A DNA stretch of 47,500 nucleotides, the filler included, from Jimgerdemannia flammicorona (Eukaryota), in assembly GCA_003990765.1 (NCBI GenBank). It is 2 parts of 2 records of this genome, joined end to end, with 100 filler letters (N's around TTAATTAATTAA, not from the genome) between each part and the next. Parts side by side here need not be neighbours in the genome. Positions count along the whole stretch, not along the records: positions 23,804 to 47,500 come from RBNJ01001077.1; 1 more part is not named here. One strand, 5' to 3'. Shown piece after piece: positions 16,190 through 42,542 of this stretch. The notes under the pieces were generated by a model that was given only the letters and a program-made list of their open reading frames with translations, ran no database searches and was not told the origin of the DNA. A program made the translations under genes and the position numbers. The first letter of the stretch is position 1, and each line of letters begins with the position of its first letter.

Positions 16190-19100
16190 ATGTCCGGCCT
16201 GAATATTGTCAACGGTGAGACCGCCGCCGCGTCCGTCGCCTACGCAACGAGCGACGATGTCTTCGTGTTCGCACATCAAACATCCTCCCCCGCCACCCAC
16301 ACTCTCACCCGCCTCGCCCAGTCCAACACCCCCAATCTCCTGAACGCAACTCCAAAGGTTCACACCCTCCCGGCGGAGGCCGACCCAGCTTCGCGCCTTC
16401 ACGAGCCTCTGTCCGCCGGCTCGCTCGTCTCCGTCGTGGCTTCCTCGCGTTCCCTCCTGGCATCGATTCCGCACCTCTACAAGGTGGCCTCCGATGGCGC
16501 CGCCCTGGTCGTCCACGTCTCGGCCGAGCACCGCTCTGCCCACGCGTCCTCCTTCGGCGACTTTTCCGACGTCATGGCCGTTCGCCAAACAGGCTTTGCA
16601 CTCCTCTCCTCCGCCTCCGTTCAAGAAGCCCAGGACCTCGCCGCCATCGCCCACGCCGCCTCCGTCGTCTCGGGAACACCCTTCCTCCACTTCTTCGACT
16701 CCCGCCGCGTCTCCGCAGAGTCCACAAACATCGATCTCCTCTCCGCAGACATCCTGTCTAAGCTCCTCACCGACACAGACATCACAGCCTACCGCGCCGC
16801 TCTCAAATCCCGCGCAGCCGCAGCCCCGAGATCTGCATACCTCCGCTACAAGCAGAAACCAGCCGTTGACCCAGCAACCCCCTCCGTTGCCACCGCCGTC
16901 CGCGACATCATGCATCGCTTCGCAGACCTCACGGGTCGCACTTACCTCCCTCTCGAGTACAGTGGCCACCCGCACCCGCGCACCGTCATCGTCGCCATGG
17001 GCGCTGGCGCAACCGTTGTGGAGCACACCATCCACCGTATTCGCGACGACTCGGACGCACGCGTAGGCCTCATCCGTGTCAGACTCTACCGCCCTTGGTC
17101 CGACGCAGACCTGATCGCTTTGCTCCCCGACACCGTTACACGTGTGGCCGTCCTCGAGCCGACGACGGACCACGCCAGCGCGTGGAACCCCTTGTTCTTG
17201 GATGTTGCCGCTGCTGTACAGGCCGCGAGGGAGAAGGTCGTGGTTGTTGGAGGACGGTATGGCGTTGAAGAAGCAGATCTGGCACCCCATGATGTTGTCG
17301 CCGTGTTGGAGCATCTTGACGGTGAGTCCGCTCCCGCACAGAAGTTCGTCGTGGGCCGACGATCCGCGTCTGCGGATTTGGACTCGGACGTCGTGGTCAT
17401 CGTAGGCGAGTCCCGTCACGAAGTCAAGATCCTTCCTGAGGGAAGCCGTCAAGCAATTGTACTCTCTGACGCCTCCGAGCCCGACGCGCACACCTTCGCC
17501 ATCGCGTTCGCTGAGGCCATCACCGTCGGCGAGGCCAGTCACGACGCCGCCAAGCGAACCGTCCAAGCTTACAGCTTCCGCACGGGGTCCAGCCACGCAT
17601 CGCATTTGCGATACATCACGGCTCGATCGGCTCCGCTCCCGTCTCTCGTGACCCGCTCACATGTCGTCGCCATCCGACGCCCCGAGAACGCCGACGCTGA
17701 AACTACGATCAATAGGCTCGTCGAAGGTGGACTTGTCGTCTTGAACGGGCCTTGGAAGGATGTTGGTGCGCTTGGTGCCACGATCCCGGCGGCGACGAGG
17801 AGGGCCATTAGGAGTAGACGTGCCCGCCTTTTTGTCGCGGACGCGCGGGCGTATGGCTCCGAAGCCGAGGACGCCGCACTTCTCGTCGCGTTGCTCGGGC
17901 TGCATTTCCAGAAAAACAGAGAAGCGCGCGAGCGGGCCCTGGGTGTCGCGAGGGCGAACTTCCCCCTTCATTTTGATCACGTCCGTGATGCGAGTGTGAA
18001 AATGCTCGACGTACCCGAGGAATGGGCCTCGGCCGAGGACTCCTTCGATCACGCCAAACCTGCTCATTCCGCGCACGAACCCCGCGTCTCAACCAAGCTC
18101 CCCGTCGAAACTCCTTACGTCAAGCTGCTCGACCAGGTCTTTGGGCCTCGTCTCCACATCGCCAACGCCGTCAACGCCGCATCGGTATGGACTCCCTCGG
18201 CCTCCGATCCGGCATCAAGCAACCCGGAGTTTGGGTACGGATTGCTCCTCGCCCAGATCCAACGCCGTGACCGCCTCGTTGACCTCGTGCGAAACACGCT
18301 CGCCGATAACACAGTCCACACACCGCCCGACCTGCATCGCGCACTAACCCAATGGCTCCTGGCCGCCAAGCCCGCCGATGGTTCGAGGCCGGCACACAAG
18401 AAGGTCGCCGTCGCGGCTGGTGAGGCTGCTACCCTGCTCGAAAAACATCACGCAATCCACCCCCGCCTCGCAGAGATCCACACCGCAGTCGATCTGCTCC
18501 AACCCCGCTCCAACTGGCTCCTCGGATCCGACACGTGGTCCTACGACCTCGGCCAGTCAGGCCTGCACCACGTCATCACATCGGGAGAGGACGTTAACCT
18601 CCTCATCGTCGACACCACCCCCTACTCTCGCGGCGAGGTCGACCGCGAACGAAGGAAGAAGGACATCGGCCTCTACGCTATGAACTTTGGATCCGTCTAC
18701 GTCGCATCCGTCGCTCTCTACTCCTCTTTCACTGGCGTCCTCAACGTCCTCATGGAGGCCGACGCTTTCCAAGGCCCTTCCGTCGTCCTCGCTTATCTCC
18801 CGCAGCCCTCCGAAAACCCTACCGCCATTGACGTCCTCACGGAGACAAAGATTGCCGTCGACTCTGGCGCGTGGCCCCTGTACCGATGGAACCCGGCGCT
18901 CGAGCACGCGGGTCGCGAGCCCTTCTGCCTCGACTCCGAGCGCATCAAGCGCGACCTCGAGGAGTTTCTCGAGCGTGAAAACCACCTCTCTTTGCTCGTT
19001 GCCCAGCAGCCGGACCTGTCGCGCACGCTCGTCTCGTCTCTCGAGCGTGATGTTCGCGGAAGGCATGAAGAGCTTAAGCGTCGTGCTAGGGAGGATTACG

Positions 19101-23842: not shown

Positions 23843-26800
23843 GTCATAAGAACTTCCACTTTATTACCAAACTGTCTATGATATATAAATACAAATGAAC
23901 CCCTCACTCAATTCTACTTAGAAGCTCTCTCTCTCTCTCACCATTCTCCTAAAACACTACCACCCCATCCACTACCCCAATTCTCCCCCTACTTTTTCTA
24001 CAGATTGTCTCTACTAGTTATCTCTAATATCTCCCACCAATACCCTCACTCTGCCACCACTCATTCAACAGATCTGTCATCAGCCACTCCTATCTAGCCA
24101 CTCTCACCCCCAATATCAACCATTAATCCTCCTTAAATACTTATAGTCAATATTCTATAAGTTCAATCCAAATCACCAGCATCCATTCTAATATCAATTA
24201 CTCATCTCTCAGCCTCCCCACCAGTCTCCTCCAGAGGTCACCCTATCTCTCTCCTACTATCAATCCTAGTAGGTATACCCCTAGCTATATCTTAATAATC
24301 CTCCAAAAGTCACCCATCACCTCACACTCTCTTAACCAATATTCAGGAGTCTGTATCACTTCTCTCTCTTGCCTAATGTTCAGATACTCCTCACACTCCT
24401 GGGTATCTCCTTCCACTAAGTGATCTGTCTGGTAGTTCAATATCATATTATACTATAGAAGTCTCTACCATACTATCTCACCACCTACTTGCCCTATAGC
24501 CAAATACTGTTTCAGTCTCACTCTTCTCCAATCTCCACCCCCTGTTATACCTCAGGCTACAGATCCCTTCTATGCTTCTGGAGGCACTCTATACTATCCT
24601 CTAAACAGAAGTCATCTACTGATACCCTGTCCAACAGAAGGCAGTCCTATCTTCACATCTGAGGTCTCTATTTCTTCTCTCCCTCATCACTCCACCATCA
24701 GAGATCAATACAGTGAGCCCCATCAACCACTCTTCACTAGAATCCCTATAGTACATCCTCTGACTCCCCTCCAAAGCCACCAGAGATAGAAGATTTTCAG
24801 TCATATTATGGAGAGAGAACTGGGCCTCCCATACTCTCTATATGAGGGGAATCTACTCTCTATCTCTCAACTTGCTTACTTACTTTAGCCACCATATCCT
24901 CAAGCAATGAAGATATTTGGGAAAATCCACCAGACCCAGGCCTTCTCAGTTTACTGACCAGGTCAATACCTCCCAACTAATCTGACTCTGTCATCCTGCC
25001 CATATTCAGATCCTAGCCATCTTCAACAGTCACTTAATCACCTATATCAGAAAGTCTAAGTAGTACTCCAAATACTACAGCTTAGGTAGCCAGTATATAT
25101 TCAGCACTGTCACCCTCTCTGCTAGAGATATATAATGACCACTCCACTCCAAGAGAGTACTCCCTCACTCTGCTAACTACTGCTCTCACTATCTATGAGG
25201 AAACAATGAGCCATATACCAAAAAGTAAATCCCCAGATAGTAAATGGCCTCTCCTGTAGGGATAATTATTCCAATCACATCTCTATCTATAATCCCTTCT
25301 CTCAATACCAAAGTCTCACACTTATGCCAGTTGAGATTAGCACCTAAGTACTCCTCATATTACTCTACTATATCTTTTAGTGCCACAACATTCTCTGCTA
25401 ACTCCAGCCTAACTACCATATTATCAGTAAAGGCCCCAACCTTTCAATTTACCCCCAGAATGTCCAACCCCCCCACCTTTCACTGTATTCTATCTAAAAG
25501 AGGCTCTAGAGACAATACATATAGGATCAGTGACAGTGGATCCCTCTGTAGCACTCCTTTATTCAGAGAGAATAAAATTCCCCTATACTTATTTATCATA
25601 ATTGCTACCCAACTCCCTTCCAGCAGACTGATCAAAATCTGCTAGACCCCAGAGGGGACTCTAATACACTTTAGTATCCCTTTCAACCACACTTACCAGA
25701 CCCTGTCATAGGCCTTCTCTTGGTCCAAGAACACTAGCCATTTATCTACTCCAATAGTATAAGCTCTCTCAATGATACTATATACCCAGGCCATCCTATC
25801 TCTGATCAGATATCCCCTTATAAATTCTCTCTGCTCAGCCCCCAGAACTTGCTGAGCCACTCCTTGCAGTCTAGCCACTAGTATCTTTATGACTAGTTTG
25901 CAGTCTATATTCAGAAGTATAATTGACCTCTAGTTTTTCCACTCCTCTCTCCTCTCCTTATTCTTAAACAGCAGAGCCATAAGACTCAAGCTCTGCCCCC
26001 CAATCTATACTCCTGAGCTAATTACTTCATTATACATTACTGTCATTTCCTCCAGAATCATCTCAACTCCTACCATCTTCTTCCAAAAATCCCACTATAA
26101 GTCATTCTCTCCTAATACTGTTCCCAAGTTTATTGTCATCAGTACCTGCTGAATCTCTTCCCCTCAGATAGCAGCACTAAGGTCACCTAAGCTCACTGCT
26201 AGATCAGAGTACCATTTCTCCAAGTATCTGTCTATGTCCAGCACCCCCACCCTCTCATTCTCCTCACTTTACAATTATCTCCACTGTTTGCTCAACTGGT
26301 CCAGAATCTCTGGTATCCCAACAACCAACTCTCCAGCCTCATCCAAGACCCCCTCCCACTGCTGCCATACTCTCCTCACCTACAGAAGCCATAACAAAAA
26401 CTTGGAAGGTCTCTCTCTCTTCTCTATTACAGCTGGACCACTATACTCTTAATCTATAGGTTCTTCTCTTACCTCAGCATACTCTTCAACACCTCCACCT
26501 CTAGTCTGATCTACTGTATCCTCTAATTCTCCTTCTCACTATCATTTAAGAGATCTGCCTAAGACACTAGCAACCTTGTCAACCTCTGGAAGATTCATCT
26601 CACTCACTTCTTTCTCTGAGTACTCTACATCCTTCCTATCTCTCCCTAGTATCATTGTACCTCAGATTTCAATCTCTTCCAGAAATCTCCAATCCCCAGC
26701 CCCTCTACTCTCCAATCAGATATTCTGAAGCAAATATCTACCACTCACACATCTCATAAGGAGACCTCCCCTAGCAAAGAGATATTTAGATACTAATGTC

Positions 26801-29350
26801 CAGGCCCCTCCCCACTTCTCCCAAAACACCCCCCTCCTAGAAGACCCCAGTGATCTGACCACAGATACCAAATAGGTTCCAAAGTTCTCTAGATATCAAC
26901 TCCTCAGTATTCAGCAGTCAACATTCAGTTAATCCTTGAGTCCAATTCTACCACTCAGTGGATATAGACTCTATGATCCCCTCATTCAAGCCTCCCAGTT
27001 TCCACTAATGAGCTCAGATGTTTAACTTTCTCCCAGGCTTCCATATCACCACTCTTATCTACTATCTCCCTTCTCTCATCAGTTCTATCTATTTTTCCAT
27101 TATATATTATATTAAAGTTCCTCTCTAAATAGTCAATCTCTACCTTCATCAATACTCTAGACTCTCATAGCCCTTGAATCCATTTCACTCTCTCTCTTCT
27201 TTCTGCTGGACAATAACATAATTCAACCATCAAGGGCCTCTAGCCTAGTCTCTTTCAAACTCCCCACACTATCCTGCTCTCCCAATATTCAATGTCCCCA
27301 ATATCTCTCTTGTCCTTTTTAACCAGAATGTCTATATGCTCACACCAAACAGCCACACTACCCCATTCCTTTGTCCAGTTCAGAATATCCAAGTTTCTAT
27401 TACACCCAACATCCTGCAGTAGAAACAAATCTGCTTCCATTCTCTTTAGCCATCCAAAGATATTTCAATATCTTACTACTCCTTAGAGTCCATTGATATT
27501 CAGAGATAAGATTCTAGTTATTCTGTTTATATTGAATAATATTATTTAAAGAACAACCATCTACTCTACAATTCTATACTTACTACATTATCAGCAACAT
27601 CTAGGTTTCTCTCTACCTCAAGCTCATCTATCTCTCCCTACTGAGTCTCTAATGTCTCCAAGATCTCTTGACAATCTGCATCATCCACAGTCTCCATATC
27701 TGTCTAGTATTCCTTGCACACTATCTGCTACTTCACTAGCACTTTCCTCAGTCCTTATATATGCAGCCCTGTCATTTGCAATCACCAGAAGTACTGCTGC
27801 CCTGCTATCATCTACTTGATATATCTCAGTCTTTAGCAAAGCCACCATTATCTCATCTCAGAGTTCCTATAGCACCTCCTTGCTATGCAGGATTTCACTC
27901 CAGTGTCTCTTGCTCAGTATCTAAAAGTCCTCTTCTCTCAGCTCCTCAGCCACCATATTCTCAAGTATTTTCCACAGTCATTTCTCCTCATCCTCAGTCT
28001 CCACTACTTTCTGGGCTACCCTCTTTCCCCCTTCCACTGGCCCACCCTCTGTATTTCTTCTTGCTGACTTATTCCAATTCTCTTTCAGTATATTTTACAG
28101 TTTATCATCTCCTCTAGCCCCATCTGGCACTCTATACTAAGGGCCCTCTCTCTCTGCCATCTTTATATTCTCTATAATAACACTCAGCCCTGAGCCTTCT
28201 TCTCTTCCCAGAGTCTTCTCTGGTGCCACTTCCTTCTCTCCTGCCCAGGCACTTGCTCTCAACCCAGCTTCTTCAGTGACAGTCCCCCCAGCTGCCCTTC
28301 CTTCCAACTTAGCTAATAGATCCTTCTGAATACATCTCCTCTACACTCTCTCCCAGACTATCTAATCCAGTCACACTCTCTTATCATTTATGATCTTTAC
28401 TATTATCTTGACCTCAAACTTCTTCCAGACTAATCTTTTCCTCTTTATGGCCTCAGCCAGATTCTCTAATACCTCCAATAAGTCCTCTTTTTCCTTCAGT
28501 GTCTTTTTTACTCTTGAGACCTTATACTCCACAGGTCCCCATTTGAGAACTGCTAGCCAGTCTCTTGCTTTCTCTGTATTCTCCTTGTCTACTAGCTATA
28601 CTCTGATGTCCACATCTCTTGTTCTGAATTTTGTACCCTCTCAGACCCAAAACTCAATATCTACAATATCCTTATACTCCTTGATGGCCTCTACAATCAA
28701 CTCTTTAGCTATCTCCTTTGATACAATAGAAATATCCAATACTGTCAGCTATACTACTTGGGGATTCCAGTATAAGCACTAGACTATGGAGATTACTACT
28801 CCCCCCACTATCACTCTCTTTTCCATTGCTTCCAATAGCATATCCTCCTTTTCAAAGCCTATCTCCACCTCTTCCAGATTCTTCAAAACTTCACTAATGC
28901 TGCTATTTTCACCTCCTGGGCCAGAAGCCCCAGAATCATTCTCACTGTCACTATCAAGCCTTGGAAACACAATGTGACAACAAATTCTGACCTCAATTTC
29001 TTAAGTAATAGTATCACCACCAGGTCTATTATACTATCTGCCAAATCTCTGGACCTTGTACCTACTCTCTGTCCTAGTTCATCATCAACTATTATATCTG
29101 GATTTTTTTTTCCAGATTAGTAGTCTCCTTGCTATTAGTAGTGCTGCTCTCTCTGGTCACTACTCTCTTAGCCCTGCTGCTCTCTACTATAGGCCACTCC
29201 ATCAGACTCTGTAGCCCTTACTATCTCCTTGCCCTTCTTCAGCCAGCTCTCCAATCCAGTTATTTGATGTCTCTCTTTTATCTTATCTATAAAGCTCATC
29301 CTTCTAGTCCTCTATCTCTCAGTACTGCCTCCTTTTCTTCCATGTCCTCT
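23811..29350 (-). mobile_element. decayed non-LTR retrotransposon (APE + RT, L1/Tx1-like) with poly(A) tail
   Basis: Minus strand: APE motifs RILSLNINGL (~27515) and ADLFLLQDV; RT motifs LVFLDQEKAYDRVW and FTDNMVV; AATAAA at 23865-23860 then poly(A) 23839-23811. ORF1 relic ~27550-29300. Many stops; 5' end approximate. Confidence 0.9.
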
Positions 29351-29370
29351 AGCTAGCAAGTCCTGTATAC

Positions 29371-29545
29371 TTCCCCCCAAGCCATAACTCCTCCCCATAT
29401 ACTGTCAGTCAAATGTACTAGGGTCACTCTGCCCAGTATACATCTCAGAATACTTATTAGTTACTATATTGCTAGTACCTATTCTCCAAAAATAATATCT
29501 TGAGTGTTGTTAGAAGTTTGTATAACTTGAATATTATCAGAGAGG
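29371..29545. repeat. further fragment of the repeat at 5857-6035
   Basis: ttccccccaagcca...gtcaaat...gtcactctgcc.agtata... is shared with 5857-6035. Confidence 0.75.
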
Positions 29546-29855
29546 CTGACAAGGTCCTTGCTAACTCTTAATATATCTATTTATCCTATTACTATTATTA
29601 TTTATAATCTTAGACTATGGAGTAATAGTACTGAATATATCTGACTTTATTACTATATCAAGCTCACCAAAGCTATCAAATAGTCTCTGGCTCTCATTTC
29701 TATATACTAGACTATTATATATATCTAACTTTAAGTATAATAGAGACCTTTTCAGCACTAAATTCATCTGCTGTTTCTACAATGTTACCAAATATCAGAA
29801 AAACTAACTCATAGTCCAAATAGCTTTCAATAAGCTCTCTGTTACCTAGAATAAT

Positions 29856-30036
29856 ATCTCTATCTATAGTAAATTTACCTTTAGAAATTATAACTGAGAA
29901 AATAGATCTAGGGGCAATCAATACTCTAACTTCTATAACTTCTAATTTAGGAGTTATAGAAGTTAGAGTATTGATTGCCCCTAGATCTATTTTCTCAGTT
30001 ATAATTTCTAAAGGTAAATTTACTATAGAAAGAGAT
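29856..30036. repeat. near-perfect palindrome, 90-bp arms around a single base (29946)
   Basis: 29856-29945 is the reverse complement of 29947-30036, with 2 mismatches seen (29941/29951 and 29862/30030). Confidence 0.95.
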
Positions 30037-30378
30037 TAGTACTTCCAAACAAATTGAATCAATTCAAATCGAATTGAATTGAGGGTCATTTGAATCAAAT
30101 TGAGGATCTGATTCAAAACCTATTTTTAGAAATATAATAACTCAACAAATACACATCCAAATTCAATAATCTTTAGCTTGTTAGATTCCCCTATATAATA
30201 GGAATCTAACAAGCTAAAGATCATTGAATTTAGATGTGTATTTGTCGAGTTATTTAATTTCTAAAAATAGAGTTCGAATCAGACCTCAAATTGAATTGGG
30301 CCTCAATTCAATTTGAAGTTTTCAAATCAAATTAAATTTGGGTCCAATTCGATTCAATTTGATTCATTGGGGGCACTA
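30037..30378. mobile_element. palindromic MITE, hAT-like (copy 1)
   Basis: Termini tagtacttccaa...ttgggggcacta, long internal inverted arms centred ~30195, subterminal (t)tgaat/attcaa repeats. Homologous to 45321-45663. Confidence 0.85.
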
Positions 30379-30419
30379 CTCCTAATAAAGCTCTCAGTAC
30401 TATATCTATAGCAATTAGA

Positions 30420-33400
30420 TGATATACTTGGAGATTATTGATAGAAGGTGAGTCTATATTGACAAGGGGCTATGAGGTTATAGGAGATAGAGAGAGTTGC
30501 TGGTGAGTCTGGAGGTGAAGAAGATGAGAGCTACTAATGAAAGTAAGGATGCTGGAAGAGCTTTGGCAAGTGTCTGGACTGGGAGATAAGGGGAGAATAT
30601 GGAGGTGGGTCTGGAGGAGGCCAGGAAGGCACTAGGTGAGGACCCATATGAGAATAGTATATTCAAAGTCTGGGAGCAGTCTCCTATATCCACTCCTCTT
30701 ATCAGGTAGGGACTGGCTGTGAGGGGCCAAGTAGTGGAGGATGTGCCCATATATAGTGCTCAGTAGGTATACTTTGGGATTCCTGAGATAGAAAAAGGTG
30801 GATAAGTAGTAGTAGTTAGTGAGAAAGAACTGGTAGATATCCCAGAGGAGAGATGAATGAGGCTGCAAGTATGGGGGAGGATATCTCAATACTGAGTAGA
30901 GGATAGCCTGCAATCTCTGAGGGAAAGAAAGTGGGGAATCTACTATAGATGTACTGGATGATAAATAACCTTATAGCTGAGGAACTAGGAGAAGTGGATC
31001 TAAGAGTGATAAGTGATGAGTACTGGGTAAGGATCTTGCATAATGATAGAGTAGTAGAGATATTAAGAGCAGAGGTACTAGTAGTTTTTCTGGAGGAGGA
31101 AGAGTATGAGGTAAACAAGGAAAGGGAGGCTGAGCTGGCAGTTGTTGCTGATGAGTGAGCCCTCTACTACTGGGAAAAGTATCATGGTTTACAGCTCTAG
31201 CAAGAGGCCTGCCTGAAGTATTATGAGGATTTTGAGAAAAAGGAGGATAGGGAAATAGCCAAGCTACTGGAGAGACTAGAAACTAAGAGAACTGAAGAGG
31301 AGGCAGTGTCTGCTAAACACAATCTGGACTTGGCAAGAGAGGTGAGGGATATGAAGTAGAGGATGTGTTTTCAATTCCATATATTTCTTATGAATAGTAT
31401 AACTAATATTTTTTCTCTCAATGTGAATGAGTTATGGGGTTCATATTGGTATTAGAATATTTTTGCTTGGCTGAAAGAACTGAAGGCAGATCTCTTTCTT
31501 TTGCAGAATATCAGATGTGAGGATGATTTGGATAGACTGGAGTGGACTAAGAAATGGGGAGGAGAGGCTATATGAAAAGGCAAGGTGGGGATTCTGATCC
31601 AAAGAGCAGAGGAGAGATACAAAAGGTAAGGAGCTGGGGTGACAGACTAGTTTGGAGAGAGTGGATTTGAGCAGGTTGAGAGCTAGCTATGGTGGGGTCT
31701 TACTACTGTCCTACTGTATGGGAAGAGTATGTGGACTGGGTGAAGGGCCTCTAGGAGAGTGGGGCCCTTACAGAGACTAGAGTGGATATACTTGACAGGG
31801 ACTTCAATATGGTCTGAGATATATTGGTGGATAGAACTGATGGAGGAAGGGGGGCTAAGGGTCAGAGTGGAGGTCTGGAAGTATAGGAGGAGGTAGAGAG
31901 ACTGAGTGCACTGGTGAATACTGGTAGGAGATTTTGAGATAATAGGAGAGTATACATGTACTGGGCCAGGGATCTGGAGATGAGAATTGACTGGGTTTTG
32001 ACTGCAGACTACTGGGGATTGGATATCTGAATATCACTAAAGGTTGAGTGGTGTCTATGGTCTGATTATTAGAGATTGTTAGGATAAGGACATTTTGGGG
32101 AGAGTGGAGATGGGCCTGGACATTGATGTCTAAATTTCTCTTTATTGGACAATAAGGGGCTGTGGGATAAGTGGGCTGTGGAAATTCAGCAGAGGGTAGA
32201 GAATTGGGTATAAGAGGGGGCTAATATGAATATCAGGTGGATGTGGCTAAAGAAGACTACTAGGGTCTACTGAAGAGAGGCTGGTAAGATAGCTGGCAGA
32301 CAGAAGAGGTGACAGGTGATATAGACTTCTACTAGACTGACTTGGCTTCTGGAGGATGAGACTGAACTGTTGGCCCTAGAGGGGGGGGGGGAGAACTGAC
32401 TATTGTTGTGGGTACAGAAGGAGGTTGAGGAGCTGTAACTAGTGGTAAGAGAGGAGGGGAAGGTACAGGTACAGAGTCTGGTGGCATGGTTGTATTGGCA
32501 GAGACTGGAGAAAGGAAAGAGGCCCTCTAAGTTCCTCATGAGGGCCCTTTAGGTAAGGAGAGTTCAGCAGAGGTGGGAGGGGGTATTGGATGCTGATGGA
32601 CATCTGGTGTATGGCATACAAGATATTCTCAGATTGTTAAAGAGGAAGTGAAGTAGTCTGTAGAGTGAGGAGGAGGGGGGGGCTGATGAGGCTGCCATTG
32701 ACCATACTTTGGAGGACTGGCACTTGCCACAGGTGGGAGGAATGGACAGCCTGGTATTGCTGGTACAGAAGGAGGAGATTTGTCAGGTTCTTGCTACAAC
32801 TTTACCAGACATAGTACCAGGAGAGGATGGCTTGCCCTAGGACTTTTGGAAGAAGATAGTGGGAATCTCCAGTATGCTAGAAGAATTGATAACAATATAT
32901 AACTTAGTACTAGGGTCAGATAGATGGGTGGGTGAACAGAATCTGAGGCTGGTGACTCTGCTCTATAAGGATAAAGGCAGGAGAGAGGACTGGAGAAACT
33001 AGCAGCCAATCATATTGCTGGATATAAACAGGAAGCTGGTTACTAAGTTAGTGGTAGTGAGGTTGTAGAAGGTGGCCCAGTAGGTATTGGGAGAGGAGCA
33101 GCAGGGCTTTGTAGATAGCTGGCTCATTAGAGATGGCACAGCTTGGATATATATTATTATTGAGAGGGTATCAGCCTGTGGACTAGATGGGTACCTGGTT
33201 TTTCTAGATCAACAGAAGGCATATAACTGTGTCTGATAGGTATGGTTGGCAAAAGTCCTGAATAGGATTGTCATCTCTCAGTTGTTTCAAGTGACAATTA
33301 TCAGTCTATTGGAAGAGAGTTGAGCAGTACTCATATGCAATGTGTACTGAGGGGGAGCTTTTTCTCTAGATAGGGGGGTCTCTCAAGGGGACCTGCTGTC

Positions 33401-35065
33401 CTCCATTTTGTATATACTCTCATTGGAGCTGTTGATGAACAGGATTCAGTAGAAGATAATAGGGCTCTCAGTATTGAGTATTGGATAGAAGGTTGGAGTC
33501 TTTACAGATAACATAGTAGTTGACCTAGAATCAATTGCTAATGTGGAGAAACTTAAGGCAACAGTAGAGTAGTATGAGGTGTATTCTGGGGCTAAACTTA
33601 ACTGGTACAAGTGTGAGACAGTGGTGTTAGATAATAGTCTGGTGGGAGGAGATATCATTGGAACAATTATCTCTACTAAGAAGGCAGTATGATACCTAGG
33701 TGTTTATATCTCAGTTTATGGATCAGTCTTACCTAGGGCTTGGTGGGAGCAGCAAGTTACAATCTAGAGAGAGGTCCTGCAGAGTTGGGGTGGCCACTAG
33801 TTGTCTCTAGCTAGGTATATTTCTATTTTGAATATCTACTGACTACTGAAGCTGTGATATTTGGCTTATTATCTAGACTTCTCAGTCTGAGTGGTGAAGC
33901 AATTGTTAAAACTGGTTAAGAGTTGGATCTGGGCTGAGAGGAGAAGTCAGATTAGCTAGAAAATCTTATCTCTGCTAGTTGCTAAAGGTGGTCTGTGGCT
34001 GGTTGACTTTCTGAAGAGACTGTACTTTCTGAGAGTATGGTGGTTGAAGAGGACAGTGGAGCTGAGAAATAGTAGCTGGGTTCTCCTGATGAAGAAGGTC
34101 TGAGAGATGAGGTCCTTACCAAGAGACTCTATAGGTGATCTACTGTCCTTAGTCAGACTTCAGAACAATAGTCATATATAGTATAAGGAATTCTGGTAGG
34201 AGGTTGTAGATAGAGCATATTGTATTAGAATTCACTAGCAGGGAGATGAAGGAGAGATGCCTTGAAGCCCTACAATATAGAGATGGGACTATATGCTATT
34301 GGGGGGTATCTCATTACTATTACTTAATTTTGATATTAGTGATAGAATAGAGTATCAGAGGGGGTTAGGACAGGGATTTGTGGCCTAGTAGATGGTAGCA
34401 GATAGATATTAGGGAGGAGTGAGATTGGAATGGGGTCTGGGCCTGGAGTATAGAGGTCAGGTGATGATTGCCACCAAAGTACTGGGTGGTCTGGTGATAC
34501 TTATTGCAGAGAAATGTCATGCTCAACTTTTACTTAGGCCATCTAGTTGAGGGAGAAAACTTTGACTGTAAGGAGTGCTATAATGTAGGGCAGGAAGGGG
34601 GTTTTGTGCAGATACCTAAATATTGGCTAGGAGAGTGTGAGATACTTGGTGACTTTTGATTAGAGGTTGAGCATCAACTGAATATTTTGTATAGGGGAGT
34701 TGATATGAGGGACTGTTGGGAGGATTTGTGAGATAGATTGATAGGGGGGATTGGGTTGGAGTGACTTACTTTAGATTGGATTATAGCTGTATGAGTGAGT
34801 TTAGCTGATCACTAGTTATTTGTTTTTAAGGATGAGAGGAGACTAGGATTGAGGACATGGTTGCTGAGATGGGAAGGGCTGATGGAGGACATCTTGATGA
34901 GCTAGTGGCTTGGATGGGGTCTATAGAGTGGTTGGTGGTATAGTTTGGTTGAGAAAATCTGTAGACAGAGTGGGGGAAGAGTTGGGGTAGTGGGCAAAAA
35001 AGTATATTTCAAGTATGAAGGTATAGAGGGAGACCCCTCTAGGGGGATTGAATAGTGGGAGGAGG
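30420..35065 (+). mobile_element. decayed LINE related to 23811-29350; its 3' end is displaced to 39565-39639
   Basis: APE motifs IFSLNVNEL (~31410) and ADLFLLQ; RT motifs LVFLDQQKAY (~33196), SQGDLLS (~33381), FTDNIVV (~33501). 5' boundary approximate. Confidence 0.9.
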
Positions 35066-35565
35066 AGAGGAAGAGGGCCCAGTGAGAGCCAAGGGAGTGA
35101 ACCCAGAGCCAGTGTCAAAGCAAACGGAAGATATGTGGAAGAGTGTGTATAAGGGGGACAAATAAAAAATGTAACCAAAAATGCATCAGCCATTTATTGC
35201 CACATAAAAACATGGTCCTTATATACAAAATATGACATCCCAAAAGGGAGAATGTGCCACAACTCGGGGCGAACCAAATTAGGAACCATATGATTGCCGG
35301 AGATAGGTGGAGATAAAGGGGGAGCCAATCCCAGTTACAGGATAAAAATCACAAACAAACACAAACAAAACAAATCCAAATCAAGATTAAAAAACATCTG
35401 CAGACCCCGGAGGGGTGAGCGTGAGTGAGGGGTGAGGCTGAAACGGAGCGAGCCGCAGCAAGCCCAAGTGAAGCGAGGGGCCGAAGGCAGTGGAGGGGAG
35501 CAGAGTAAGGCCAAGACCCCGGAGCGAGTGCAGGACCCCGGAGGGGGCAAGGATGTTTTTTAATC
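35066..35565 (-). repeat. PLE 3' pseudo-LTR
   Basis: Direct repeat of 38736-39236. It begins at the RT stop codon and runs into the first ~22 codons of ORF1. Confidence 0.93.
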
Positions 35566-37614
35566 CTCTCTGGCAGAACCGGAGGCACCAGAAGGTGACG
35601 AAAATGCAAAACGAGAGTGATGGATTGAAGAAGAGACAGAAGGAAGACATGAACAAGCAATCAGAGGGCATCGGGAAAGAGACGAAAGTCCATGGTATGA
35701 AAGAGAAGAGCGCAGGACAGTATCAGAGCATTGAGCAATCCAGCGAGCACGATCAAATGGTACGATGAGAATCAGGGGTGGGAAAGAAGAGGGGGTATGG
35801 AGAGGGTAAGGGGGGAGAGAGGGAAGGGAGGGGGGGTAAAGGGGAGAGAGCAGGGAAGAGTGAACAACAGACCATTCAACAGAAGCAAGCAGATTGCGAA
35901 TGATAGAAATAGGGTAGGCACAACAATGGACCACAAAGTTGCCAAGAACCCAAACAGCAGACACCCAATCAGAACGATGGGAGCAGCATAATGCAAGATG
36001 ACGAGCCTCACCATGAACACATTCAAGAAGAGTGCGATGAGGATGATTGGACAAGAAGTCAGGGAACTGTTGGGAATGGGAGAAATGGGAATAAACAACA
36101 GTTCGGAAGGGAGAAAGAGAAATGGAAAGGTCCAAAAAGGGAATACTAGTCATACCGCACACTCAAGTAATAGAATGATGGGGAGGGTAGATGCCCAAGA
36201 ACACACTAGGGATATCAATGCCAGTAACAGCAAAGACAATAAAGTCATCAATATATCAGTGAAAGAAGATATCCCCAGCCTGGAATGCAATGGAAAGAGG
36301 TGAAGTAATATCACATAACACACGCAATTCATGGGCCAGGCCAACGAGGTTGGCAAGGGTGGGGGCACAATTTGTACCCATGGCAATACCAGAAGTCTGG
36401 TGAAAGGAGCCAAGGGCCGACTCAAAATAATTAGAGCTGCAGATGAGGAGCATAAGCTCAACAATGGAAGCCAGCAAAACTGGGGAATCCAAAGGAAAAA
36501 CCAAGAAACCCAAGAAGCGAAGGCAATCATCAATCTCATCAAAATGAATAGCAGTATAGAAGGAAGAGAAGTCACCAGAGGCCAAATGGGAAAAACGGTG
36601 AACAGGCACAATGGTGGAGCAGAGAAGGGCAAGCTCCTGAGTATCATGAAGAATAGTATACTCAGGCCCAAGATGGTGTTGTAAGAGAGCCATCCAGGAG
36701 AGAAAGAAGCAGGATAACCACTTCGAGATCTCGGTGGTAGGAGAACTGTAAGCAGCCATAATAGAATGCCAAGCCAAAATAGGCTTGTGAACCTTAGGAA
36801 GAGTATAGAAAACCAGAAGAGAAATATCTGGGGAGGACAAAGAGTCCTGGAAGAAGTTAAAAATAGGGTTCGCGAATGGAGAATCCAAAAGCAATCTAGT
36901 GTGAGCCAGAGAAACCCGAAGAAGAATGAGAACCTCATCTAATCCAAGAGCACTAAGCTTGTAAGCCATGGCTTGAAGGAGGGCAGAAAGGCCATCAAGG
37001 TAGAGTGACTTAGGAATAAGTGCAAAACCCTGATTCTTATCAGTGACTGTGAGCAAATACATAGGCAATTGCTTGACCGATTTAAGCATGGTACACATGG
37101 CATGGTCTGAAACCAAGCAAGAGTGAGCTCGTCTAGGAATGAACAGCGAGCAAGCCATGTCGAGGAATACGCAGTGTGAAGAGACATTGGGAGGGGGGAC
37201 CCAATCGCTAGGAATAAAATAGCAAGAGGGCATCTCACCACGATCTTGAAAGAAGATGGCAAGATCAAGAGCATGATGAAAACATGTTAGACGAGCTGGA
37301 TCAGTGAAGGAGAATTGTGAGGGAGTCGCAGGAAAAACAAAGCGAGGACCCAAGGATAAGGCAAAGACTTGAAGGGGAGAAAGGGGGCAGTCAGCCGAAG
37401 AAAAAGGAGGAGACAAAAGAGTTCCAAGAGAAGAATAAACCCAAAAGTTTGAGACAAGCAACTGGGAAAGACGAAGGGTGGACAACATGAGGAACCACTC
37501 AGGGCACACCAGAAGCGATGACGGAATCCAAGAAGGGACAGGGACACCAGAGGAGAACCATGCCAGGGGGAAGTTTAAGAGCAGGAGGCCTTCCCCTTCC
37601 CTCTGACTTTTTTT
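35560..37614 (-). pseudogene. Penelope-type reverse transcriptase, two in-frame stops
   Basis: TDKNQG, FYTLPKVHKP, GDFSSFYTAI, FHQTSGIAMGTNCAPTLAN, H*YIDDFIV (TGA 36256-36258 in place of the R of RYIDD), second TGA at 36163-36165, PFLDL, SNHP. ORFs 36256-37644 and 35560-36162 share a frame. Confidence 0.92.
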
Positions 37615-38805
37615 GAAGGTGGCGAGCCCGACGAATGGGAGCACACCCCATCAGAGTGCCAGACCTTGTGGCCACAGACTTTCGTGCAGCCCTTACATTC
37701 AGGGGTATGGGTGGAGGAGGCGGAGGAGGAACCAGCAGAGGAGGCTGAAGGTGAGCAAGCAGCTGAAGGGGCAGCAGCACGAGGAACACCACCATGAGGA
37801 CAGACAGACTTGGCCGGGTGCCAGTAGGCATGGTGGAGGTGACTGGAGCAGACAGCGCAAGGCCAGGCCCTGACAGGGTGAGAACCAAGTTGGCGGCCAT
37901 ACTTGGGGGCAGGGGGAACAGAGGAGGAAGCCTTGGTGGGGGAGAGGGACCGAGAAGAGACTGACGAAGCCTGGTTGGGCTTGGCAGGGGTCTTAGCGGG
38001 GTCTTGGAGGGGGCCTTGGTGGCAGCAGCGGTGAAGGAACAAACCTTGGTATGAGCAGCGGCATGAGCTTTGGCACAGATGGCCTCAGAGACCAAAACCT
38101 CGAGAGAGGTAGGCAGGGGAGCAGTGGTGGCGGCACAAGCAGCGGCAGCAGTATGTGATGACTCCTACTCATGAAGGCGAGCAACGAAAGAGGTGCCGGT
38201 GAGGAGGAAACGACATACAGTGTCAATGTCGGCGGTGATAGAAGGAACATCTTGGATGGCGAAGCCACAGAAGGAGGCAGCATCCAAAAGGCGGGAGGAG
38301 GCAAAGGCCATGAAAGCGGCACAGGCATATTAGAAGGAGGCAGAAGTGGTGGTGGCAGAAGCAGTGGTGGCATCAGTGGCAGTGAGCTTGGCGGTGGCAG
38401 TGGTGGCACGAACCTCTTCAGAGAGGGCTTGGCAGCGGGCCTCAGAGAGAACAGAGTAGCGGATGGTGGGCAGAGTGATGACATCAATGTCACAGTGGAG
38501 ATGTCACGGCGGAGATGAGCCTCCTTGGCGGAGAGGGCAAGAACTGACCGGAACTGAGAGAGGAGCAGATGACCAGAAGGATGAAGGTCCAAGGGGAGGA
38601 AAAGGATGGCAGAAGAGACATAGGTCTCGAAGGAGACAGTGGCAGGGGTGAAGGCAGGGGGAGGGGGAGGAGGAAGTTCCTCACCCATGAGCTCGTTGAC
38701 AAGGACGGAGGCCCCGAGGGCAGGCGATACAGCAGAGGAGGAAGAGGGCCCAGCGGGAGCCAAGGGAGTGAACCCAGAGCCAGTGTCAAAGCGAACGGAA
38801 GATAT
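37575..38805 (-). pseudogene. PLE ORF1 (gag-like, about 400 codons, twin Cys/His motifs)
   Basis: Reconstructed across a 14-bp tandem duplication (38490-38517), a 1-bp deletion near 37998 and two stops. Start is ATA at 38805 here but ATG in the inverted copy (39487-39489). Confidence 0.65.
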
Positions 38806-39564
38806 GTGGAAGAGCATGTATAAGGGGGACAAACAAAGAATATAACTGAAAATGCATCAGCCATTTATTGCCACGTAAAAACACAGTCCTTATATACAAA
38901 ATATGACGTCCCAAAAGGGAGGATGCGCCACAACTCGGGGCGAACCAAATTAGGAACCACATGACCACCGGAGATAGGTGGAGATAAAGGGGGAGCCAAT
39001 CTCAGTTGCAGGATAAAAATCACAAACAATCACAAACAAAATAAATCCAAATCGAGATTAAAAAACATCCACAGACCCCGGAGGGGTGAGCATGAGCGAG
39101 GGGTGAGGCCGAAACAGAGCAAGCCACAGTGAGCCCAAGTGAAGCGAGGGGCCGAAGGCAGCGGAGGGGAGTGGAGTAAGGCTGAGACCCCGGAGTGAGC
39201 ACGAGACTCCGGAGGGGGCAAGGATGTTTTTTAATCTCGATTTGGATTTGTTTTGTTTGTGTTTATTTGTGATTTTTATCCTGCAACTGGGATTGGCTCC
39301 CCCTTTATCTCTGCCTATCTCCAGTAGTCATATGGTTCCTAATTTGGTTTGCCCCGAGTTGTGGTGCGTCCTCCCTTTTGAGATGTCATATTTTGTATAT
39401 AAGGACTGCATTTTTACATGGCAATAAACAGCTGATGCATTTTTGGTTACATTCTTTATTTGTCTCCCTTATACACACTCTTCTACATGTCTTCTGTTTA
39501 CTTTGACACTGGCTCTGGGTTCGCTCCCTTGGCTCCTGCTGGGCCCTCTTCCTCCTCTACTGTA
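38728..39564. repeat. PLE 5' terminus: pseudo-LTR plus fold-back copy (arms 38728-39070 and 39222-39564, 151-nt loop)
   Basis: Arms are reverse complements. The sense strand carries TATATAA, AATAAA and the ORF1 start. Confidence 0.93.
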
Positions 39565-39607
39565 ACTATATCTATAGACTGGTAATAAATGGTAAAGTCC
39601 AAGTGAA

Positions 39608-39639
<32 letters not shown>
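39565..39639 (+). mobile_element. displaced 3' UTR and poly(A) tail of the 30420-35065 LINE
   Basis: tatatctatagactggtaataaa + A29 resembles the 3' end of the minus LINE (tatatcatagacagtttggtaataaa + poly(A)). Confidence 0.75.
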
Positions 39640-39642
<3 letters not shown>

Positions 39643-41700
39643 CATAAATCAATTACAGAATACCAGATACTTCAACAATATGAATCTTTTTACAGAATTC
39701 CATAAGATTCCTATAGACCTCAAGGATATTCAGAAAATAGCTTTTCTTATCTTAAAAAAATTATTTAAATATCTCTGAATACCTTTTGAACTCTATAATA
39801 TACTTCTAACCTTTTAGAGAATAATGAACTCAGTCTATAGCCCACTGATCTACTATTGCCTAATTATATATATAGACAATTCTAACATCTATTTAGCAAA
39901 TTTTGAACTATATAGAAGAATTCTTTCAGCTTATCTATAAGAACTATCTGAGACTCAATACTAAGAAATGCTACTTTGGAAAACAGAAACTCAAATTTCT
40001 TAGATTTATTATTTCTAAAGAAGAAACTCATACAGACCTAAAGGAAACTGAGAAGATCAACAACTGGTCAATACTTAAGACTTTAAAGGAAATACTATTA
40101 TTTCTGATACTAGTATCCTACTATAGAAGATTTATTAAAGACTTTATTTAAGTTGCTACTCCAATTTAAATTCTTTTTAAGAAAAGAATACTATAAATAG
40201 ATGGAACTACAAGAACTAGCCTTTAGAGAACTTAAGTATTGTATAACCACAGTACTAATCCTTATATAACCTAACTGTAAAAGCTATTTATCTTATATAT
40301 ATATCTTCAAAGATAACCTTGAAATAGTCTTAGCCCAAGAAGAATCTGCCTAGTAGTATCATATGATAGCTTATATAAGTCAAGCTATAAACCAGCAGTA
40401 AGTCAATTATAGTAGCACTAAACTAAAATATCTTGCAGTTATATAGATAGTTATCTTGTTTAAACACTATCTTATTAGAAAAAGATTTACTTTAATAACT
40501 GATCATACTGTCCTCAAATAACTATTTAACTATAAGAAATTAACTAGAATTCTTGCTTACTGGATTCTTACTATATAGGATTACAAAATCACTATCATTC
40601 ATAAAGCAGAGAAAGCCTATAACAATGTTGATATACTTTTCTACCAATTTTAATAAATCAGAAGAAGAGTATATTAAGAAATTATATCCTAAAGAAAGTT
40701 TTACAACTGCTAAAGCACAATATCTCATTCAACAAGAATACCAAAAAGCCCACTAAGGACAAGTAAATATAGAGAAGAAGCTATAAACAATATATCAATA
40801 CTGGCTCTATCTCAGAATATAAGTCCAAGATATACTTAAGAAATATAACACCTGTCAGAAGTATTAAAAAAAGAAGAACTACCAAGTACTACTACAACCA
40901 ATTACACTACTAGTCTACATCTTTCAAAGATGGGAAGTAGATATTATTGGACTTCTGTCAGTTATGTATATCAAGAAGAAACAAATATATCTTAGTATTT
41001 ATAGAATATCTGACCAAATGGCCTGAAGCTTTTAGAATAGAAATTACTAATATCTTGACTATTGTTGGTCTCCTCTATAACCTTATACTCAGATATAGAT
41101 CTCTAAAAGAACTTATTTCTGACTGAGGTACAGAATTTATCAATAATATCATTATAAGTTATACTCAAATTTATAAGATTTATCTGAAATAAACTATATT
41201 ATACTATCTTCAAACTAATGATATGATAGAATGAATAAACCAGATCATCAAGAAAGGACTTACTTGAGTCAATTCTATCAATTGGGACCTCTGCTTATCT
41301 GAGATCTTATGGAAAATTCAGAATATCCCTACTATCTCTACTAAAAAAAAGTCATTCAAGATAATATTTACCAAGAAAGCCAGAACTACTGACTATGAGA
41401 ATCTTGGAGATCTCTTCAAAAAGACAGAATAATTATATAATCAAGCCTGAGCTCAGATAATTAAGGCTAAGGAAAGACAAAAGAAGTACTATGACCAGAA
41501 GCAGAAAGATCAGAAGATCAAGATTGAAGATCAAGTATTAGTTTGGAGAAATATAATCAAAACAAACTTTACTATCAAACTAAAGCCCAAATAGAAAGAA
41601 TCTTATCTTATATATGATATTAGAGGAATTAGTATCTATTTAAGAAGTATATATATATAGATAGATGTACTCTAAGGACCCCAGTTTATATTAATTATCT
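39640..41700 (+). mobile_element. heavily decayed Ty3/gypsy pol (RT, RNase H, integrase)
   Basis: FKYL*IPFELYN (cf. MPFGL), YIDN (cf. YIDD), FISYYRRFIKDF-like motif, FQRWEVDIIGLL, LISD*GTEF, YYLQTNDMIE (cf. YHPQTNG), KPK*KESY (GPY/F). Confidence 0.88.
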
Positions 41701-42542
41701 TAAGATATATCTATATACTACTTATATAATAAACTAGAAAATTGACCAGTATCTCCAGACTATTATTCTCAGTTTTTCTATACTCTATCAGTTCCCTTGT
41801 CTCAGTTCTGAGAAATAAATGGAATCTGTCTTCAATAGATCCAAATATATCAAGAAAACCTTATCTTAGTAAAACACCTATTACAGATTTACTAACTGCA
41901 GACCTATTATAAATTAGCCAACTACTGTAAAATATTTCAGCCCCAGAATAGACCTATATCTATAATATCACTGATCTGTCTCAAAGAAATACTATTACTA
42001 TAGATAGACTCTATACAATTTATAAATAAAATATTATAGTACTAATTCAGATCTAGTTCTCTCTAATGACTTTTAGAGAATGACCATATCTACCTTCCTG
42101 AGTATTATCAATTATATTAAAGTCCTATTCACTGAGAAAGAGAAAGAGCTACTAGAATAGAGTAATTCAGATATTGGAGAAGATAATGATATATGTAGGT
42201 ATAGATACTGAAGATGCCTATAGATATCACAATAATAACTAAAGGACTGTCTGGAGATAGACTACTCTTTAGTAGAGACTGATGTGATGAGTAAATAATA
42301 TATGTAGTATAGCCAGATAATATAAATACTCAATATAGTATAGCTATCTATAATATATACTACTACTATAATTAGCAAAGTATTATATCAGATTTATTGA
42401 TCCATATTTTAAGAATATACCTATTCTTATCAGACATACTTATATCTACTAGATATACTTGTATCTATCAGATACATATACCTATACTTACTAGATATAT
42501 ATATCTAGTTATCTCTTTCTCAAAATAGTATTATTATATATT

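Follow-up and report, generated by a model that had tools for sequence, protein, structure and literature searches.

The Penelope-like elements (PLEs) closest to the present locus differ in whether they carry a GIY-YIG endonuclease (EN) and in where they insert. EN-bearing (EN+) members of the Penelope/Poseidon group, such as Pen2a_Av (PMC3846280) and PAc (PMC11167929), have two direct pseudo-LTRs (pLTRs) plus an inverted 5' pLTR, with a 15-bp overlap between inverted and direct copies, an ORF start inside the pLTR and a fixed internal start of reverse transcription. The protein of one EN+ PLE starts at an internal RNA site, from which it extends both strands, and a dimer is predicted for it (PMC11167929). 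Craig et al. 2021 (PMC8557442) considered that the cleavage properties of the endonuclease very likely determine tandem and inverted pLTR structures. Among EN-less elements, the rotifer-specific Athena/Terminon elements of bdelloids (PMC8557442, PMC6431247) form head-to-tail chains attached to telomeres via hammerheads and reverse-complement telomeric repeats. Coprina, which occurs in fungi and other hosts (PMC13159263), lies at chromosome ends between telomeric repeats, at approximately one copy per end, and also carries hammerheads. PLE-X, a Chlamys-related EN-less group from Chara and Selaginella, is intrachromosomal, and genome-wide in Chara, with an insertion mechanism that is stated as unknown; it has hammerheads and a CxC motif and belongs to Naiad/Chlamys (PMC8557442). 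Outside the PLEs, L1 insertion that is independent of the endonuclease has been described as leaving deletions but no duplication (PMC1920257).

The stretch of DNA analysed here (the window; 47,500 nt from Jimgerdemannia flammicorona) contains, at 35064-39557, a decayed (dead) member of a high-copy PLE family. The family has the pLTR arrangement, 15-bp overlap, ORF start and fixed reverse-transcription start of EN+ Penelope/Poseidon, but lacks the GIY-YIG domain, 8-10-bp target duplication and hammerhead reported for that group, and has an ORF1 with a frameshift and either target deletions or duplications of 0.45-1 kb. Like Coprina, for example Coprina-1_Alen (PMC13159263), it has no GIY-YIG, a DKN-RT-thumb frame, terminal repeats, a probable fungal host and an upstream ORF1 that is helical and disordered; unlike Coprina, it is internal, has hundreds of termini and two outward-facing 3' ends, and shows no telomeric repeat or hammerhead core. 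It shares its intrachromosomal position with PLE-X, but its reverse transcriptase (RT), judged against EN+ relatives, does not have the insertion in the fingers carried by Naiad/Chlamys RTs. Athena is likewise EN-less and has an ORF1 that passes into the RT by a -1 frameshift, an arrangement also predicted here; an ORF1 frameshift with a pseudoknot has been described for PLEs (PMC8557442, PMC6431247). Target deletions, microhomology, a second round of RT priming on the reciprocal end and the joining of two RT products also occur in endonuclease-independent and twin-primed L1 insertions (PMC1920257, PMC11702581). In L1 these events are rare side products of an EN+ LINE, and their internal junctions are random, whereas in the window family the two-ended route appears to be the normal one, with a dedicated hairpin as the joint. 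The combination of an EN-less, two-ORF, inverted-pLTR and genome-wide element was not found in print, although each part has a precedent: the inverted pLTR in EN+ Penelope, two ORFs in telomeric Coprina and EN-less genome-wide insertion by PLE-X in Chara. An earlier note on this DNA had set EN-less elements at chromosome ends against interstitial elements with GIY-YIG, a framing that omits two-ORF Coprina (PMC13159263) and genome-wide PLE-X (PMC8557442).

Structure and coding capacity of the element

The unit opens with a pLTR, followed by an ORF1 that has two Cys/His knuckles, then by a -1 slippery site and a TERT-like RT without GIY-YIG, and closes with a second pLTR (Table 1). The limits given in the earlier note (35066 and 39564) were wrong, the true ends being 35064 and 39557; the direct and inverted terminal repeats that it described were both confirmed, the direct ones at 35060-35359/38731-39030 (91% identity) and the inverted ones at 38728-39070/39222-39564 (90% identity), and the pLTRs have the direct and inverted arrangement of PLEs. 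The copy sits in the 3' end of a decayed LINE-like element and 2-3 nt of target were lost relative to paralogues. Among the sequencing runs listed as sharing words with the stretch there was no RNA run. In one soil metagenome run (word share 0.06), 251 contigs matched across the stretch at 85% likeness, with one weak joint skipping the element, a result given no weight here. In a separate search of metagenome contigs, no related locus was confirmed.

Table 1. Features of the window copy and its surroundings.
Feature	Position	Strand	Remark
Whole insertion, monomer, RNA-3'-type terminus on each end	35064..39557	-	Form seen in 29/37 two-ended insertions (4.3-4.6 kb)
3' pLTR, 502 nt; its terminal base is the fixed start of reverse transcription in the family	35064..35565	-	
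Hairpin module, 5' end of 3' pLTR; 15-bp basal stem, 151-nt folded loop	35385..35565	-	z = -4.2 for the family majority sequence
RT reading frame, 696 codons, PLE/TERT-like, without GIY-YIG	35560..37650	-	Open in 3/56 copies
In-phase -1 slippery heptamer A AAA AAA	37608..37614	-	Kept in 55/56 copies
Predicted stem-loop or possible H-type pseudoknot behind slippery site	37567..37603, approximate	-	Prediction only
ORF1, ~405 codons: Ala-rich helical part, low-complexity linker, two Cys/His knuckles	37575..38805	-	Open in 32/56 copies
5' pLTR, 502 nt, contains ORF1 start	38735..39236	-	
Central hairpin module, axis joining the two arms	39056..39236	-	
Inverted pLTR arm, 336 nt; 15-nt stem common with 5' pLTR; same final base as 3' pLTR	39222..39557	+	
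Host repeat: RT domain of decayed LINE-like element	33003..33707	+	Pfam RVT_1 E = 2.9e-15, stops read as X
Displaced 3' tip and poly(A) tail of same LINE-like repeat	39558..39639	+	Flanks colinear with paralogues

The minus-strand RT frame contained the motifs DKN, LPKVHK, GDF, GIAMG, YIDD, FLDL and SNHP, and its stop codon was located in the opening 6 nt of the 3' terminal repeat (start at 35565). The earlier note was right that the RT is of PLE type and ends inside the repeat, but the frame is not intact, with in-frame TGA codons at 36258 and 36165. The RT aligned over its full length with PLE RTs of both EN+ and EN-less elements (PLE/TERT group, DKN motif, PLE thumb); it ended approximately 11 residues past the conserved post-thumb segment, and its tail aligned with the segment preceding the EN linker in EN+ relatives. 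The segment between motifs 3 and 4 exceeded that of EN+ rows P0039 and P0052 by at most a few residues and thus contains no insertion-in-fingers domain. The predicted structure was a TERT-like ring without a nuclease domain.

A second family (family B, the window family being family A) with 40% RT identity and the same layout was found in the genome. Since family B is also EN-less, the loss of the nuclease is not peculiar to the window copy. The best structure matches of its RT model were telomerases (Z 16.8, rmsd 5.2, 410 aligned); RT residues 40-603 aligned to telomerase, and no nuclease fold appeared among the structure matches, which cover neither ORF1 nor the last 75 residues. Word-index searches found 1 and 8 proteins. 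A relative occurs in Racocetra fulgida (CAG8787539.1). In a tree with no outgroup and weak deep forks, whose sequences did not include the named Coprina, Athena, Neptune and PLE-X proteins, the RTs formed a well-supported branch of their own (100/100), separate both from EN+ relatives and from EN-less relatives with long N-termini. This branch was sister to short EN-less RTs, including an amoebozoan one (100/98); the separate long-N-terminus group held a Puccinia RT.

The upstream ORF1 described previously was present and overlapped the RT frame in a -1 frameshift arrangement; in the window copy it was broken by a 14-nt insertion, a 1-nt deletion and an altered start codon. A -1 frameshift from ORF1 into the RT is predicted from the in-phase slippery heptamer common to both families, family B having A AAA AAC at the matching place. 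ORF1 was predicted to be helical and disordered, with no sheet, and its structure model was poor (pLDDT 45), which leaves room for a cryptic nuclease there. The ORF1s of the two families had only the knuckles in common. No homologue was found above lead level in the ESM Atlas or in a 5.8-billion set, which is no evidence of novelty. A 450-codon proline-rich frame over ORF1 was rejected, because only the other frame has family B's knuckles and the phase of the slippery site.

Searches for nuclease, ribozyme and telomeric sequences

In agreement with the earlier note, neither Pfam nor a profile built from EN+ relatives detected GIY-YIG at either end of the element; this profile recovered 11 of 150 relatives, and not the window-family RT. 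GIY-YIG, which is C-terminal in EN+ PLEs of the Penelope/Poseidon, Neptune, Nematis and Hydra groups, was also absent from ORF1 and the RT N-terminus, the Naiad/Chlamys-type position. An extra domain was found in none of the 56 near-full-length units covered by the coding survey. Elsewhere in the genome, the best 15 of 37 GIY-YIG matches looked organellar: CpG was not depleted, and nad1- or cox3-like frames lay next to some of them. At these 15 loci tblastn found no PLE RT. PF14529 gave no match. Rfam returned no hammerhead or other credible family, and a CUGANGA core was absent from both strands of the pLTRs of both families; the pLTR may contain a non-canonical ribozyme.

Tandem TTAGGG, TTAGG and TTTAGGG occurred nowhere in the window, which bears out the statement that the junctions have no telomeric repeats, and CCCTAA or TTAGGG was absent from the pLTRs of both families. 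The host genome has TTAGGG arrays at contig ends. When copies were mapped relative to telomeres, none of 75 loci (583,280 bases) was telomere-capped, and no PLE was found in the eight telomeric contig ends tested (5 kb each, a part of the telomeric contigs). The domain survey, the RT fold and the telomere mapping support the earlier suggestion that the element inserts at internal sites without a recognisable nuclease of its own.

Insertion ends, target sites and the route of integration

The genome contained 373 exact matches to the 35-nt terminal motif. In 37 of 47 insertions the same pLTR 3' base was found at both sides, with the arms joined at the 5' hairpin; the other ten had one non-standard end, and 104 of the 114 ends in view stopped at the pLTR 3' base. 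The junction of the arms always lay inside the basal stem of this hairpin, as did the crossover in all 14 family B centres. The hairpin was strong in both families (z = -4.2 for the window-family majority sequence, 100 shuffles), also on the cDNA strand. Besides monomers, 8.1-kb head-to-head dimers were observed, the halves of which had 38-72 derived changes in common, compared with a mean of 18 and a maximum of 28 for unrelated copies. These common changes are as compatible with fold-back or subsequent gene conversion as with two RNAs from one donor. The loop was antisense to the body in 4/27 monomers; loop flips could instead stem from later recombination between arms. In family B, A-runs were present at 11/13 distinct outer ends. 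Stand-alone 825-nt mini-elements are not claimed, there being a single candidate (L068) at a contig edge and none among the 37 two-ended blocks.

No target duplication of 3-24 nt was found in any of 39 pairs of insertion flanks; three of the 39 had long duplications of about 450, 878 and 1006 nt. Comparison with paralogous empty sites, which were available for 8/39 insertions at 70-98% identity (one ambiguous), gave six clear target deletions, of 2-3, 9, 11, 15, 16 and 77 nt. Target ends showed 1-4 nt of microhomology to the RNA bases just past the terminus, the template being matched at positions +1 to +4 in 74, 45, 49 and 53 of 105 termini (p from 1e-16 to 2e-5). The microhomology was equal at both end types, with T in 17/27 inverted-arm ends and 18/27 3' ends, and no target motif other than the template-matching bases was found at the termini.

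We consider, with a probability of roughly two in three, that this is an autonomous EN-less PLE whose integration proceeds by two-ended target priming, at DNA ends made by something else; the evidence consists of decayed genomic copies throughout. An RNA running from pLTR to pLTR would give rise to ORF1 and, through a -1 frameshift during translation, an ORF1-RT fusion, and the resulting RNP would capture both 3'-OH ends of a break or of a stalled-fork or repair intermediate. Each DNA end would pair with a few template bases and prime cDNA at the pLTR 3' start site, after which the 3' end of one cDNA would anneal to the complementary stem strand of the other and repair would seal the gap. One long and one short cDNA would give the 4.5-kb monomer with its inverted arm, and two long cDNAs the 8.1-kb dimer. 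Trimmed ends would yield deletions, and ends overlapping after repair synthesis the 0.45-1 kb duplications.

It is unlikely that the breaks come instead from a specific nuclease in trans (an AP endonuclease from a LINE, or an EN+ PLE that escaped detection) recruited to the RNP, the element being a dependent passenger. AP-endonuclease domains (PF03372) are abundant in the genome (150/150 scored, among 4968 candidates), 33/39 insertions have CpG-depleted, repeat-like flanks and the window copy is itself lodged in a LINE 3' end; however, repeat-rich flanks may only mirror genome make-up and selection, the targets show neither a short duplication nor a further motif, and the best 15 of 37 GIY-YIG loci look organellar and hold no PLE RT. 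We judge it distinctly improbable that priming is one-ended and that the cDNA then folds back at the 5' hairpin, a self-primed second strand producing the inverted arm and the dimers and the far end being end-joined. The strength of the hairpin on the cDNA strand and the origin of dimer halves from one donor would suit such a route, as would the slight excess of derived changes common to the inverted and 5' arms (27, compared with 16 and 14 for either with the 3' arm). Fold-back synthesis, however, has no reason to stop at the base where the 3' end also stops, with the same microhomology, and a fold-back copy would not give the A-run found on the inverted arm of two family B monomers, at a point where the element's own sequence runs on into ORF1 (both runs lie at contig edges). 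It also predicts sense loops only, whereas a symmetric join of two cDNAs allows the antisense loops observed.

A high copy number with fixed ends is usual for elements that bear a nuclease, and ORF1 has neither a homologue found nor a confident fold; it is nevertheless very unlikely that a nuclease has gone unrecognised in ORF1 or in the 75 residues that follow the thumb, or that the hairpin RNA is catalytic, given an ORF1 predicted without sheet and conserved between families in its knuckles only, an RT that matches telomerase and ends in the segment found before the EN linker of EN+ relatives, and heterogeneous target outcomes. The same 336-nt inverted repeat on both ends could suggest a TIR-bounded unit mobilised as DNA by a transposase acting in trans, and in an assembly of 35,354 contigs the palindromes might be artefacts. 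This explanation is scarcely credible, and is already largely refuted by the duplication, poly(A) and dimer-divergence data: there is no fixed duplication, the microhomology is to internal sequence, family B has poly(A) ends, and the two halves of a dimer diverge by 3.3-5.8% at non-CpG sites, unlike what a collapsed assembly would produce.

More tentatively, two-ended priming may characterise an independent, deeply branching PLE lineage in early-diverging fungi that has lost nuclease, hammerhead and telomere dependence. Its members might be obligate break-bridging retroelements: extension by the RT would start from both ends of a chromosomal break or stalled fork, and the pLTR hairpin, whose cDNA strand has GNA-triloop motifs, would provide a built-in cDNA joint.

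Implications

Two families that are 40% alike make the inverted structure, hundreds of times, without a detectable nuclease, and leave a readable target signature of microhomology, deletions and kilobase duplications; EN-independent priming by a telomerase-like RT at internal ends is therefore testable in vitro. For annotation pipelines, such elements resemble TIR DNA transposons. The finding bears on how telomerase-type RTs use broken ends. If the more tentative break-bridging reading is correct, RNA-templated break healing would be the normal way to transpose, and the inverted-pLTR layout of Penelope would be a product of the RT and its RNA rather than of cleavage by GIY-YIG.

Structure of the element and its target

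The element in the window is a Penelope-like element (PLE), and the observation that it has two ORFs and no endonuclease (EN, GIY-YIG) is well supported. The earlier note had described a complete PLE-type RT that stops inside the terminal repeat; all motifs were present and the stop codon lies within the first bases of the 502-nt repeat (the pseudo-LTR, pLTR), but two TGA codons interrupt the frame. RT relatives were collected with phmmer, and the best 150 of 1875 found were used. A GIY-YIG profile built from the EN+ matches hit 11 of these 150 and no frame of family A, the family of the window copy, in agreement with the note's claim that the domain is lacking; the Pfam GIY-YIG was present in one of the top 60 relatives. 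In the alignment, the family A RT terminates just past the segment preceding the Cys linker and GIY-YIG of the EN+ rows, with no insertion in the fingers.

ORF1 of family A has two Cys/His knuckles and is helical and rich in Ala. Its overlap with the RT lies at an in-phase heptamer (A AAA AAA) that 55 of 56 copies retain; a stem or pseudoknot is predicted behind it, and so is an ORF1-RT fusion of ~1077 residues.

A decayed, plus-strand LINE-like element (RVT_1, E 2.9e-15) is the target of the window copy, which lies in its 3' end, ~53 nt ahead of the poly(A). Both flanks align colinearly with paralogues (71-88% identity) except for 2-3 missing nt, and there was no flank duplication within 6 kb.

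Features of the window copy and of its surroundings
Feature	Position	Strand	Basis
RT frame, 696 codons, all PLE motifs	37650-35560	minus	reading-frame analysis
Terminal repeat at RT end, 502 nt	35565-35064	minus	repeat comparison
Second occurrence of terminal repeat	39236-38735	minus	repeat comparison
Inverted arm, 336 nt; 15-nt stem common with 5' repeat	39222-39557		repeat comparison
Decayed LINE-like element, nearly CpG-free	23850-29900		
Related element, likewise decayed and nearly CpG-free, opposite orientation	30300-35060		
Palindromic repeats separating these two	29856-30036; 30093-30297		
Copia-type LTR retrotransposon	207-4670	minus	
Single-frame 1712-aa gene: pyruvate-flavodoxin oxidoreductase, flavodoxin and sulfite reductase domains	16190-21328	plus	
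Intron-containing gene, RhoGAP-like segments	8966-12412	minus	by eye
Heavily decayed fragment, RT-associated RNase H domain, LTR-retrotransposon type	39640-42500	plus	

Judged by sequence, the Copia-type element is probably young, since its long open frames hold few stops and show little CpG loss. The fused flavodoxin/sulfite-reductase gene, of a fungal type, points to a fungal host, as do the TTAGGG contig ends, the intron-type GIY-YIG loci and the nearest named RT relative. The RhoGAP-like gene carries ~15 copies of a 24-nt tandem repeat encoding an 8-residue unit.

Copies of family A and a second family

A DNA search (best 24 of 708 candidates scored) gave at least 15 near-full-length family A copies including that of the window, the others being 88-91% identical to it. 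The 35-nt terminal motif had 373 exact matches in the genome (reversed control, 0), which at three motifs per monomer would imply over a hundred insertions. A further 55 stretches were fetched; 45 of them were taken from the first 100 motif matches, in the order of their contigs. The 56 near-complete units diverge from the majority sequence by a median of 3.8% outside CpG and 27% at CpG, which points to one burst followed by decay of methylation type. The RT frame was open in 3 and ORF1 in 32 of these units. None had an insertion of >30 nt in the coding body, so an extra domain is absent from every examined copy.

A genome search with a metagenomic relative as query revealed family B, whose RT is ~40% identical to that of family A and whose DNA is alike in short RT stretches only. 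Its plan is the same: pLTR, a 399-codon ORF1 (one knuckle common with family A, E 3e-4), an in-phase slippery heptamer (A AAA AAC), a 679-codon RT without EN, and a 198-nt 5' hairpin (z -5.4); units occur as head-to-head dimers and as monomers with the inverted arm. Because family B repeats this plan, the layout is a property of the lineage. The family B RT model (pLDDT 85) best matched telomerases (E 1.4e-8; Z 16.8, rmsd 5.2, 410 aligned, residues 40-603).

The hairpins of the two families have no alignable sequence in common. In both, GCGAAGC and CCGAAGG each occur once on the cDNA strand (window 39056-39236 and 35385-35565; family B locus L161:4844-5041), sequences known as GNA-triloop DNA mini-hairpins of very high stability, and a C(UUCG)G tetraloop motif lies on the sense strand.

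Insertion ends and the route of integration

After seven redundant loci were dropped, 47 insertions had both flanks in view. Both ends were at the pLTR 3' base in 37 (29 monomers of 4.3-4.6 kb, 5 dimers of 8.1-8.3 kb and 3 compound), as were 104 of the 114 ends in view, in a sample biased toward the two-ended form by its first 20 loci, picked as best full-length matches. Target duplications of 3-24 nt were seen in none of 39 end pairs, five of which are nested self-junctions. Against paralogous empty sites, available for 8 of the 39, deletions of 2-3, 9, 11, 15, 16 and 77 nt were found, one further site being ambiguous; in one family B dimer, ~8 target bases were replaced by T9 and A10 runs, again by comparison with a paralogous empty site. 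Long duplications (878, ~450 and 1006 nt; 95-98% identical, adjoining both ends) occurred in 3 of 39, with flanks mostly 1-1.5 kb in view, so that longer ones would escape. The first four target bases matched the RNA continuation past the terminus in 74, 45, 49 and 53 of 105 termini (121 minus 16 self-joined), equally for inverted-arm and 3' ends, and no target motif was found beyond them.

A-runs were present at 11 of 13 distinct outer ends of family B; two monomers also have one on the inverted arm, in each case at a contig edge. In all 14 family B centres the crossover lies within the basal stem (12 in the outer part, 2 in the inner). The two halves of a dimer derive from a single donor, but the difference of 3.3-5.8% between them shows that dimers are not artefacts of assembly. 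Interruptions are frequent in the A-tails of family B (A8 T A7 and the like; L058:790-810 and the ends of L139, L153 and L162), which may reflect repeated slippage copying as in telomerase. At five loci (L051, L066, L073, L095, L105), one end of an element in a pLTR chain or partial tandem abuts an interior position of another copy, which suggests that new rounds can be primed by the end of an incomplete cDNA.

Since both ends resemble RT starts and are joined at a complementary stem, the simplest reading is that two target-primed cDNAs, each starting at the pLTR 3' base, would anneal to each other through the hairpin stem, whose strands are complementary between them. Varied target losses, kilobase gains and template microhomology argue for ends made and processed by the host rather than by a nuclease of fixed geometry. 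We give this reading, two-ended priming at host-made DNA ends, about two chances in three. The layout resembles canonical Penelope insertion, Pen2a_Av having the same 15-bp overlap (PMC3846280), and the target signature resembles endonuclease-independent L1 insertion (PMC1920257).

A nuclease might instead be supplied in trans, and AP-endonuclease domains are plentiful in the genome; however, the 15 GIY-YIG loci inspected, out of 37, all have an organellar look and are without a PLE RT. A cryptic nuclease could also reside in ORF1, for which protein searches (ESM Atlas and a 5.8-billion set) returned no homologues and the structural model was unreliable (pLDDT 45). Fold-back priming of the cDNA is a further rival to annealing of two target-primed cDNAs. 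Intron-type GIY-YIG gene clusters lie beside nad1- and cox3-like frames on contigs C509, C6559 and C1998 (L106-L120), which are probably mitochondrial.

Telomeres and relation to known lineages

TTAGGG arrays are present at contig ends of the host genome. The earlier note had seen no telomeric repeats at the junctions; tandem telomeric repeats are absent from the whole window, and the comparison of copies with telomeres that it proposed gave no two tandem units in 75 family A loci (583,280 bases) and no PLE in eight 5-kb telomeric ends, a part of the telomeric contigs (tblastn with nine queries, blastn). The pLTRs of both families lack, on either strand, the CCCTAA unit and the CUGANGA hammerhead core, and an Rfam search gave no match. 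Published accounts of EN-less fungal PLEs place them at telomeres and give them hammerheads (PMC4209133, PMC13159263 and PMC4522978).

In an IQ-TREE tree of 46 RT proteins, built without a named reference element and with weak deep forks, both families, three metagenomic RTs and one from Racocetra fulgida, the nearest named relative, formed one branch (100/100). Its sister comprised short EN-less RTs including one from Stenamoeba (100/98); EN+ rows and long-N-terminus EN-less rows, including a Puccinia sorghi RT, lay apart. Family A shows neither the features of the EN+ clades and of Naiad/Chlamys nor the telomeric ones of Coprina and Athena; by its RT it may belong to a broadly drawn Coprina clade. 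EN-less intrachromosomal PLEs (PLE-X, PMC8557442; MjPLE01) and a two-ORF Coprina (PMC13159263) are already known; no high-copy, internal, hammerhead-less fungal PLE was described in the full-text literature searched, which held few subscription papers, with Repbase outside its scope.

Many of the best 150 PLE RTs are RT-only frames of ~600 aa. As GIY-YIG was undetected in 139 of these 150 (P0005-P0154), some of which may be partial, there may be many EN-less PLE lineages yet to be described.
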